Below, in pieces: positions 63,494 through 63,612 of a stretch of 64,000 nt of DNA. The translations under genes and the position numbers were made by a program. How positions within the stretch are numbered: the stretch's first letter is position 1; the number at the start of each line of letters is the position of its first letter. The notes beneath the pieces are model-generated. The model saw only the letters and a list, made by a program, of their open reading frames with translations, was not told the origin of the DNA and ran no database searches. Source of the DNA: a virus (taxonomy: Duplodnaviria; Heunggongvirae; Uroviricota; Caudoviricetes); IMG/VR virus record IMGVR_UViG_3300021399_000101, positions 65,630 through 129,629 of that record. One strand, 5' to 3'.

Positions 63494-63612
63494 GGATACA
63501 CACAGCAAATATTTTTTTTAGGTCTTGTAAACCCGGTGTCGTTGGTTCGAGTCCAACCTGAAGGTTAGCCCCTTCAGTAGCTCAGATGGCAGAGCACGAT
63601 AAAAATGTATCC
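63494..63612 (+). ncRNA. circularly permuted tRNA-like element, paralog of 25286-25380: outer helix GGATAC(A)/(T)GTATCC, T-arm GTTGG-TTCGAGT-CCAAC, acceptor hairpin CTGAAGG-TTAGCC-CCTTCAG, D-arm GCTC-AGATGGCA-GAGC
   Basis: Both copies share GGATRCACACAGCAA after the outer 5' strand and RYATCCAGT at the 3' strand. Confidence 0.4.

Follow-up and report, generated by a model that had tools for sequence, protein, structure and literature searches.

The second of the two tRNA-like elements in the window (the whole 64-kb stretch of phage DNA that was analysed) is probably, at roughly 80%, a gene of a large rumen phage (at least 208 kb) whose product is a small, Y-RNA-like non-coding RNA composed of a handle and a tRNA-like cargo. 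The handle is a module with a 7-bp end stem, an unpaired ACAGCAA located 3' of the 5' strand of that stem and a GU after its 3' strand, and the cargo copies the elbow and the acceptor end of a tRNA, with a T arm, a closed 7-bp acceptor and a D arm. This handle is the hallmark of a large RNA family which occurs in one to several copies per locus, mostly upstream of a gene for a ring protein that is likely Ro60-like.

Conservation of Ro60/Y RNA particles extends from bacteria to humans, and the particles are a major autoantigen. To our knowledge, the roles of Ro60 and Y RNA in bacteria and phages are poorly understood.

Structure of copy 2 and covariation with copy 1

The copy 2 module occupies positions 63493-63613 of the window on the + strand, and the conserved GT that follows extends it to 63615. 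Its parts are as follows.

63493-63499 (+), 5' strand of the outer (closing) stem, TGGATAC, with 7/7 pairs to 63607-63613
63500-63508 (+), ACACAGCAA, that is AC-ACAGCAA, an unpaired conserved motif with the same letters in copy 1
63509-63540 (+), variable linker of 32 nt; a small hairpin in it, GGT-CTTGTAA-ACC, sits where a variable or anticodon-like arm would be
63541-63557 (+), T arm GTTGG-TTCGAGT-CCAAC, which aligns to the YrlA T arm; 4/5 pairs covary
63558-63577 (+), closed acceptor-like hairpin CTGAAGG-ttagcc-CCTTCAG, a perfect 7 bp; double changes at 7/7 pairs in 13 units
63578-63595 (+), TA (the U8-A9 equivalent) and then the D arm GCTC-AGATGGCA-GAGC; 3/4 pairs covary
63596-63606 (+), A-rich 3' linker ACGATAAAAAT of 11 nt, which varies among relatives
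63607-63615 (+), 3' strand of the outer stem, GTATCCA, and then the conserved GU; G follows in 87% of 141 family units

All the helices that the initial annotation had drawn in copy 2 were found in place, including the perfect 7-bp acceptor, and the distance that it gave from the upstream genes for tRNA-Lys, Glu, Leu and Met is correct, as tRNA-Met ends at 63133, 360 nt away. The last base of the variable linker, C at 63540, is the equivalent of tRNA position 48, and the equivalents of A14, G15 and G18G19 are present in the D arm. The exact 9-mer together with a perfect 7-bp closing stem was found only in copies 1 and 2 within the 64-kb window, and relaxed searches of the window for the module gave counts at the shuffle background. 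Minimum free energy (MFE) folding of both copies recovered the outer stem, the acceptor hairpin and the D arm (z = -1.8 and -2.9), but the T arm was missing from the MFE folds of both. With such modest z-scores, and with the T arm missed, folding energy alone is weak and the comparative evidence carries the case.

The first comparison is with copy 1, which has the same arm order and pairing, as had been claimed.

25285-25381 (+), copy 1, TGGATGC-AC-ACAGCAA ... GCATCCA-GT, with a T arm, a closed acceptor and a D arm

Copy 1 does not have the extra hairpin and has no anticodon arm; its acceptor loop opens with GCCA, at the place where the discriminator and CCA would fall. The alignment of the two copies, which the initial annotation had put forward as a check on its view that the helices differ in sequence but are compensated, bears that view out: eight pairs were changed on both sides (one in the outer stem, two in the T arm, four in the acceptor and one in the D arm), with no one-sided changes and no broken pairs. 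The linker motif, whose conservation had also been pointed out, is identical in both copies and is the hallmark of the wider family.

An alignment of 13 units with the T/acceptor/D domain drew on the window phage, on Enterococcus phage EA1 and on seven contigs from metagenomes. Double changes occurred at 20 of its 23 pairs and 99% of its cells were paired, in an alignment that was condensed by hand to helix blocks and is thereby biased towards structure; none of 500 shuffles was as good, and slid controls paired at 28-44%. Neither the D arm nor the outer stem was a criterion for selecting these sequences. The equivalent of the tRNA 15:48 Levitt pair covaries across the 13 units (A:U in six, G:C in three, U:A in two and U:U in two), and equivalents of tRNA tertiary contacts are retained in the units, namely U8-A9, A14, G18G19 and TTCRANY.

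Relatives in GenBank phages and the partner gene

A blastn search of GenBank phages with copy 2 matched unannotated intergenic DNA in about 25 Enterococcus phages (150 kb), just upstream of a PHROG-850 gene, and also the Caulobacter phages CcrColossus and CcrPW. The CcrColossus match has 75% identity over 67 nt and lies upstream of a gene annotated as a "putative TROVE-like domain protein". The units of the Enterococcus phages have a stem, NACAGCAA and the tRNA-like layout, as does copy 2. In phage EA1 the match lies upstream of a gene for a 510-aa "RNA-binding protein", and the spacer holds three tandem units, each with a closing stem followed by C/A/T-ACAGCAA, two with the T/acceptor/D domains and one without. 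The EA1 protein belongs to Pfam DUF2828 and DUF7788, with a weak VWA_2 match, and to PHROG 850, and homologs of it adjoin units in the loci L099 and L057. Megablast of the window from 55 to 64 kb found no match in GenBank phages, and the ORFs of the window, compared with the first 122 loci collected, were unrelated to those of other motif-bearing phages.

Within the 64-kb window, neither a DUF2828/DUF7788 homolog nor a TROVE-like ORF is encoded. Three contigs reached through the RNA ligase protein (L225-L227) match the window, however, at 100% identity along as much as 14.8 kb and extend beyond its end; one scaffold measures 207,848 bp, which makes this a phage of jumbo size. In the coordinates below, the window position is the position in L226 plus 49602.

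55828-56625, phosphoesterase gene
59231-60337 (+), RNA ligase gene, PF09414 with a PHA02142 OB domain, PHROG 968
63891-64000 (+), start of a 70-aa ORF which runs off the window end
64159-65601 (+, window-equivalent), gene for a 480-aa DUF2828/DUF7788 protein, 547 nt downstream of copy 2
about 65644-65860, 65969-66091, 66626-66685 and 68281-68402, at least four further units past the partner gene

The partner gene begins 159 nt past the window end, after ORFs of 92 and 70 aa, and hence could not be seen when the initial annotation was made. It has its own perfect match to a sigma-70-type promoter. The unit at 68281-68402 is another T/acceptor/D domain, 17 further tRNA genes are interspersed with the units downstream of the partner gene, and the locus of copy 2 and the partner lies among more than 30 tRNA genes. 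Copy 1 lies 39 kb from the DUF2828/DUF7788 gene, outside a same-strand proximity of about 2 kb, and is adjoined by a gene for an RNase T-like exonuclease.

Judged from models and profiles, the DUF2828/DUF7788 partner is likely a Ro60-like ring with a vWA domain. PDB sequence searches with the partner protein, by phmmer and by profile, gave no match to Ro60, and Pfam TROVE gave none on this protein even at E <= 10. An AlphaFold model of the homolog from locus L099 (pLDDT 65, pTM 0.48) consists of a helical repeat at the N-terminus and then an alpha/beta domain, and in Foldseek its sole significant PDB match was the Ro60 of Thermus phage phiLo, over the full length (E 1.8e-5). Ro60 structures were also its best fold matches, with a TM-score of 0.26 and a high rmsd, values that follow from the mediocre quality of the model (pLDDT 65). 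By hhalign, the C-terminal vWA part, including DxSGSM, aligned to the TROVE-like protein of CcrColossus (84.7%, E 7e-6).

Phage phiLo Ro60 binds two Y-like RNAs which are encoded upstream of its gene, and it forms complexes with the host PNPase and dampens PNPase activity (PMC12135203). The arrangement here resembles that of the phiLo Ro60/Yrl particle (PDB 9L5Y, 9KOP), in that Y-like RNAs lie just upstream of the gene for a ring protein, which in phiLo consists of HEAT repeats and a vWA domain; phiLo Ro60 is the best structural match to the modelled partner homolog, at about 15% identity. It differs in that the selection of the phiLo RNAs relied on a CGAA motif within a stem-bulge-stem, with no tRNA likeness described for them (PMC12135203), and in that PDB entry 9L5Y annotates the phiLo protein as containing a TROVE domain.

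Comparison with YrlA RNAs

YrlA RNAs have an end stem which binds Ro60 and carries GNCGAA(N)G on the 5' side, and a tRNA mimic composed of a T arm, an acceptor stem-loop and a D arm; in bacteria and in 22 phages, a Ro60 (TROVE) gene is found no more than 4 kb from their genes, on the same strand (PMC4201824). The likeness to copy 2 is considerable. Its paired ends make a putative protein-binding stem with a short conserved motif on the 5' strand, and its internal mimic has the T arm, closed acceptor and D arm with U8, A14, G18G19, the T-loop and a covarying 15:48 pair. The units, often in several copies, also lie on the same strand as a ring-type protein gene, within about 4 kb, and occur in phages. 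As in YrlB, some copies in the handle family are without the tRNA-like part. The YrlA of M. smegmatis has a 7-bp acceptor, as do copies 1 and 2 here, and is cut by RNase P and given CCA (PMC4201824).

A canonical YrlA RNA whose partner is a TROVE-type Rsr (Ro60) from the host or the phage, as in Salmonella and the mycobacteriophages, would account for the match of the tRNA-like module to the YrlA model and for the similarity to the CcrColossus RNA, which precedes a TROVE-like gene, but this reading appears quite unlikely. In a permissive Rfam scan of copy 2, the only match other than tRNA was YrlA (RF02553) at 32.9 bits (E 1e-4), under half of the gathering score (69), and it covered positions 24-84 of the 114 in the model, which are the T/acceptor/D part; positions 1-23 and 85-114, the Ro-binding stem, were unmatched in copy 2. 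Copy 1 had no YrlA match at E <= 10, and the units of the Enterococcus and Caulobacter phages had none at the gathering score. The motif GNCGAA(N0-1)G is absent from both copies, whose form is instead N7-NN-ACAGCAA ... N7'-GU, and the neighbour is a DUF2828/DUF7788 gene where YrlA has a partner with Pfam TROVE. In all, copy 2 fails three of the four defining features of canonical YrlA/TROVE membership that were tested. A further hallmark of YrlA RNAs is that Ro60/Rsr binds them in vivo and that TruB and DusA modify them. The cargo of the handle family is also far more variable than that of YrlA, being mostly of 30-40 nt, or a T arm only, or nearly a whole tRNA core.

A covariance model (R1) was built from ten seed units, none of them from the window. 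It scored copy 2 at 88.8 bits (E 3.9e-17), copy 1 at 53.7 bits (E 2.3e-9), a unit downstream of the partner gene at 60 bits and a unit with a 37-nt insert at 31.9 bits, and had no other match with E < 0.3 in the window; six of the ten seeds had been retrieved with a 15-mer of the window itself, so that the test is partly independent only. No Rfam 15 family matched the handle in the window or in typical short units, and across 19 loci Rfam at gathering thresholds reported tRNA matches only, some nested inside units. In full-text literature on DUF2828, on the motif with Ro60 or Y RNA and on phage Y RNAs, of which coverage was incomplete, the family and its link to the protein were undescribed. 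The 'skipping-rope' RNA, possibly Ro-linked, was considered as the same system. It was rejected, as its paper ties it to DUF3800-type genes.

The ACAGCAA handle family

The family pattern is N7-NN-ACAGCAA ... N7'-GU around a variable insert, and in copy 2 it takes the form TGGATAC-AC-ACAGCAA ... GTATCCA-GT. It emerged from a comparison of loci with different contents. The module encloses a full T/acceptor/D domain in L099, a different tRNA-like insert in L102 and L119, and an insert of 24 nt in L108; L122 has three adjacent units with the unrelated stems GGGATAC, GGAAAAC and AGACTGC, each perfectly closed, and L057 has several units. Only the outer module is shared by these loci, which gives N7-NN-ACAGCAA ... 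N7'-G as the common denominator with the insert variable. A reading of the 5' strand as a CsrA-binding (GGA) site was discarded, as stems without GGA exist (L122, L057).

Scans with fixed strings were less productive. A scan of IMG/VR for GGATRCACACAGCAA gave mostly chance matches and a few true relatives, in phage tRNA clusters; an ungapped 15-mer scan of the same database gave mostly chance or coding matches, for example to the conserved phage protein region TGGATGCACACAGCAA; a scan with gaps of 45-75 gave no matches, and in a metagenome scan 15 of the 18 matches were due to chance; the window itself was present neither in that collection nor in IMG/VR. Three giant-virus MAG contigs carried the same 16-mer in 64-nt tandem arrays.

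The family was measured around the protein, which is encoded at no fewer than 549 viral loci and 576 genome loci and has at least 7,878 members. In 80 viral loci sampled from those encoding the DUF2828/DUF7788 protein, ACAGCAA occurred 426 times on the coding strand against 28 on the opposite strand, and sites closed by a perfect 7-bp stem numbered 219 against three. The great majority of these closed units (188 of 219) lay within 2 kb upstream of the protein gene, and 67 of the 80 loci had a closed unit no more than 1.5 kb upstream. Among 80 bacterial-genome loci, which were mostly gut or rumen Clostridia MAGs, the counts by strand were 302 against 60 for ACAGCAA and 240 against 14 for closed sites, and 77 loci had a closed unit. 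The invariance of ACAGCAA is by construction of the search; its strand and position biases are strong. When the register was fixed, such that the 5' strand ends 2 nt before ACAGCAA, 176 of 423 sites closed perfectly, as opposed to 36 and 22 in the controls. The 141 unique closed units use 68 distinct stem sequences, with the consensus AAGRCRC-NN-ACAGCAA ... GYGYCUU-G(U). Inserts were mostly of 30-40 nt, and a T loop was seen in 42 of 201 units, in several arrangements. Inspection by eye found no consistent complement to ACAGCAA, either downstream or internal. In relatives of copy 2 the extra hairpin varies in length and has loops of 5 or 7 nt, which is not the behaviour of a conserved anticodon arm; the idea of such an arm had been prompted by CUUGUAA in copy 2 and by CUUCUAA in L099, beside tRNA-Arg-UCU, and was dropped as it is not general, others having 5-nt loops.

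The stem and ACAGCAA could also be read as a DNA-level or processing signal unrelated to the protein, such as a CRISPR-repeat-like or Cas6-type hairpin, a type III antitoxin-like repeat, a cassette boundary or a small ribozyme. The adjacent units of the giant-virus arrays do form GTATCC-TGTAGA-GGATAC hairpins, and no Ro60-like gene was present in the examined flanks of those arrays. Against this stand the strong strand bias and the placement of the units, which in 144 of 160 loci keep a fixed position ahead of the gene for one protein family; both render such a signal very unlikely. Solitary units have no local hairpin, the long-range stem alone being common to all, and there is no match to a ribozyme or another family in Rfam; it is for these two reasons that the CRISPR-repeat, type III antitoxin and ribozyme readings were set aside. 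The inserts, moreover, are often unstructured and A/U-rich, with too little conserved RNA for the catalytic core of a ribozyme.

Permuted tRNA genes, as in the red alga Cyanidioschyzon merolae and some archaea, have transcripts that are cleaved at a bulge-helix-bulge, circularised and processed at their ends into functional tRNAs. Copy 2 resembles such genes in having the 3' half before the 5' half with a short linker, and a true gene of this kind would be circularised via the outer stem and have its acceptor loop opened by RNase P and a 3' nuclease. The arm order fits this, as does the GCCA at the start of the acceptor loop in copy 1; a 7-nt loop of the form C-U-NNN-A-A stands on a short stem at the right place in copy 2 and L099, and an RNA ligase gene lies 3 kb upstream. 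We nevertheless hold this to be highly improbable. Copy 1 has no anticodon arm of any kind, the corresponding stem in copy 2 has 3 bp only, and the loops of the relatives L102b, L213a and L222 are of 5 nt. Circularisation would leave the outer stem and ACAGCAA between the D and anticodon arms, and most family members have inserts of 30-40 nt which are not tRNA. The sequence shows no evident bulge-helix-bulge-like motif, a loop closes the acceptor, and the module is a handle linked to an adjacent Ro60-like gene and not to a splicing endonuclease. ARAGORN and the Rfam tRNA model made no call on the copy 2 element. Of the initial description as circularly permuted tRNA-like, a covarying structured RNA family with the order T arm, closed acceptor and D arm has thus held up, and a rearranged tRNA gene that yields a tRNA has not.

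A chance or degenerate junction between the 3' half of one tRNA (pseudo)gene and the 5' half of the next, an artefact of YrlA searches against which Chen et al. 2014 warned (PMC4201824) and which is indeed represented by many real phage tRNA-tRNA junctions among the blastn matches to copy 2 (e.g. H1, H32), is scarcely credible here, as the two halves of the acceptor can pair with one another along 7 bp and covary in 13 units, no D or anticodon part lies upstream and no T arm downstream, and the element is bracketed by the conserved stem, ACAGCAA and GU and recurs beside the same protein family in unrelated phages.

Proposed function of the Y-RNA-like element

For a Y-RNA-like RNA with a handle and a tRNA-like cargo, genomic linkage suggests that ACAGCAA is where RNA and protein meet, and in copy 2 AC-ACAGCAA is presumed to be the protein-recognition element. 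The DUF2828/DUF7788 protein would bind the handle, with ACAGCAA in the role that GGUCCGA/GNCGAA has for Ro60. The tRNA-like cargo might then recruit, or act as a decoy for, factors that recognise tRNA, such as RNase P, the CCA-adding enzyme, modification enzymes, exoribonucleases of the PNPase type and host anticodon nucleases, and RNase P may open the closed 7-bp acceptor. The particle could tether or block an exoribonuclease, or serve as a decoy or sensor for host nucleases directed at tRNA. By analogy with known Ro60 particles, a role in the surveillance or repair of tRNA and other RNA may be proposed, which in this phage could mean the surveillance, protection or repair of its many tRNAs during infection. 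Partial mimicry of tRNA (T arm and acceptor) within a larger RNA is also known from the tRNA-like domain of tmRNA and the 3' tRNA-like structures of viruses. Those end in an open acceptor which can be aminoacylated, whereas a loop closes the acceptor of the element here, which has neither a messenger nor a genomic context.

We would give even odds to the broader proposition that ACAGCAA-handle RNAs and DUF2828/DUF7788 proteins together represent a hitherto unrecognised second branch of the Ro60/Y RNA system. This branch would recognise RNA by a code of its own and would be plentiful in the phages and prophages that inhabit gut and rumen Bacillota, and its modular cargo of tRNA parts would serve as decoy or recruiter of host enzymes directed at tRNA. 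If so, well over a thousand loci in phages and prophages, now left blank or miscalled as odd tRNAs, would add a different handle and a divergent Ro60-like protein to the system and greatly enlarge its known distribution. DUF2828 and DUF7788 would gain a function that can be tested, and the natural series of cargoes, from none to a nearly full tRNA, offers a probe of the purpose of the tRNA-like module in Y RNAs. The setting in this phage, which combines tRNA arrays with genes for an RNA ligase, a phosphoesterase and an exonuclease, suggests a link with the contest between phages and host defences that cleave tRNA. tRNA or tmRNA genes were also found within 4 kb in 30 of 48 viral loci.

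tRNA cores enclosed by ACAGCAA units

Some of the ACAGCAA units (RNA modules in which a 7-bp closing stem bounds a variable insert) in Clostridia genomes were found to enclose nearly complete tRNA cores, which are listed below by locus together with the extent of their match to the Rfam tRNA model.

L306 2564-2627, positions 5-66
L302 2706-2769, positions 5-66
L241 2672-2733, positions 5-66
L147 3702-3774, full model, 1-71
L237 2449-2518, full model, 1-71

In the first three, where the model match spans 5-66, nothing but the acceptor ends is lacking. The closing stem of these Clostridia units seems to stand in for the acceptor stem, a permutation opposite to that of the two Y-RNA-like copies in the window.

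In the phage of the window, a further unit lies immediately 3' of the Ro60-like gene (L226 16042-16257; window-equivalent about 65644-65860). Its stem, TGGATAGT/ACTATCCA, is 8 bp long, and the insert spans ~190 nt.

Other tRNA-like RNAs

Copy 1, the first of the Y-RNA-like tRNA mimics, has a tRNA-like gene on either side, both scoring ~38.5 bits with the Rfam tRNA model and neither called by ARAGORN.

25165-25229, +, GAAA tetraloop in place of the anticodon loop
25390-25460, +, aberrant T loop

These may be additional tRNA mimics or decoys.

Upstream of copy 2, an 83-nt RNA (62318-62400, +) scored 51.2 with the Rfam tmRNA model, for which the gathering score is 47, and ARAGORN made no tmRNA call there. 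It consists of the tRNA-like domain alone (acceptor and T arm), with 15 nt in place of the entire messenger and pseudoknot part. Its opening 18 nt are repeated ~370 nt upstream (61951-61968), and this repeat could pair with the 3' end of the RNA.

A tRNA cluster at 53162-54963 (+) comprises tRNA-Asp, four tRNA-Glu (CUC and UUC), an unusual redundancy for a single amino acid, and an odd 68-nt 'tRNA-???' with an anticodon call of 2 nt. Two tRNA genes with long anticodon-region insertions adjoin ACAGCAA units at other loci (L140 3638-3755, insertion of 57 nt; L122 2072-2162), and may be intron-containing or disrupted.

Tandem arrays in giant-virus contigs

Three giant-virus MAG contigs carry 64-nt tandem arrays of ~7 units.

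L016 7923-8353
L112 about 8046-8232
L120 4394-4884

The unit layout is AGGATAC-ACACAGCAA-37 nt-GTATYCT-G, where the 37-nt stretch is a hairpin whose loop is of the GNRA or UUCG type. The 16-mer and closing stem are those of the window copies, either through homology or by chance, and the flanking sequence available for the three arrays does not contain a Ro60-like gene.

Gene content of the window

RNA-repair-type genes are located close to the RNAs.

55828-60337, +, Metallophos phosphoesterase, isochorismatase-family protein, SprT-like/DUF2786 protein and RNA ligase (PF09414 with a PHA02142 OB domain)
25664-26164, +, RNase T-like exonuclease, adjoining copy 1

Metabolic genes are present at 1-4300 and 38396-39277, and include several paralogous radical-SAM proteins, a carbamoyltransferase, SHMT, a xanthine/uracil permease and an anaerobic ribonucleotide reductase. 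This load is unusually rich, and would fit a jumbo phage that infects an anaerobic (rumen) host.
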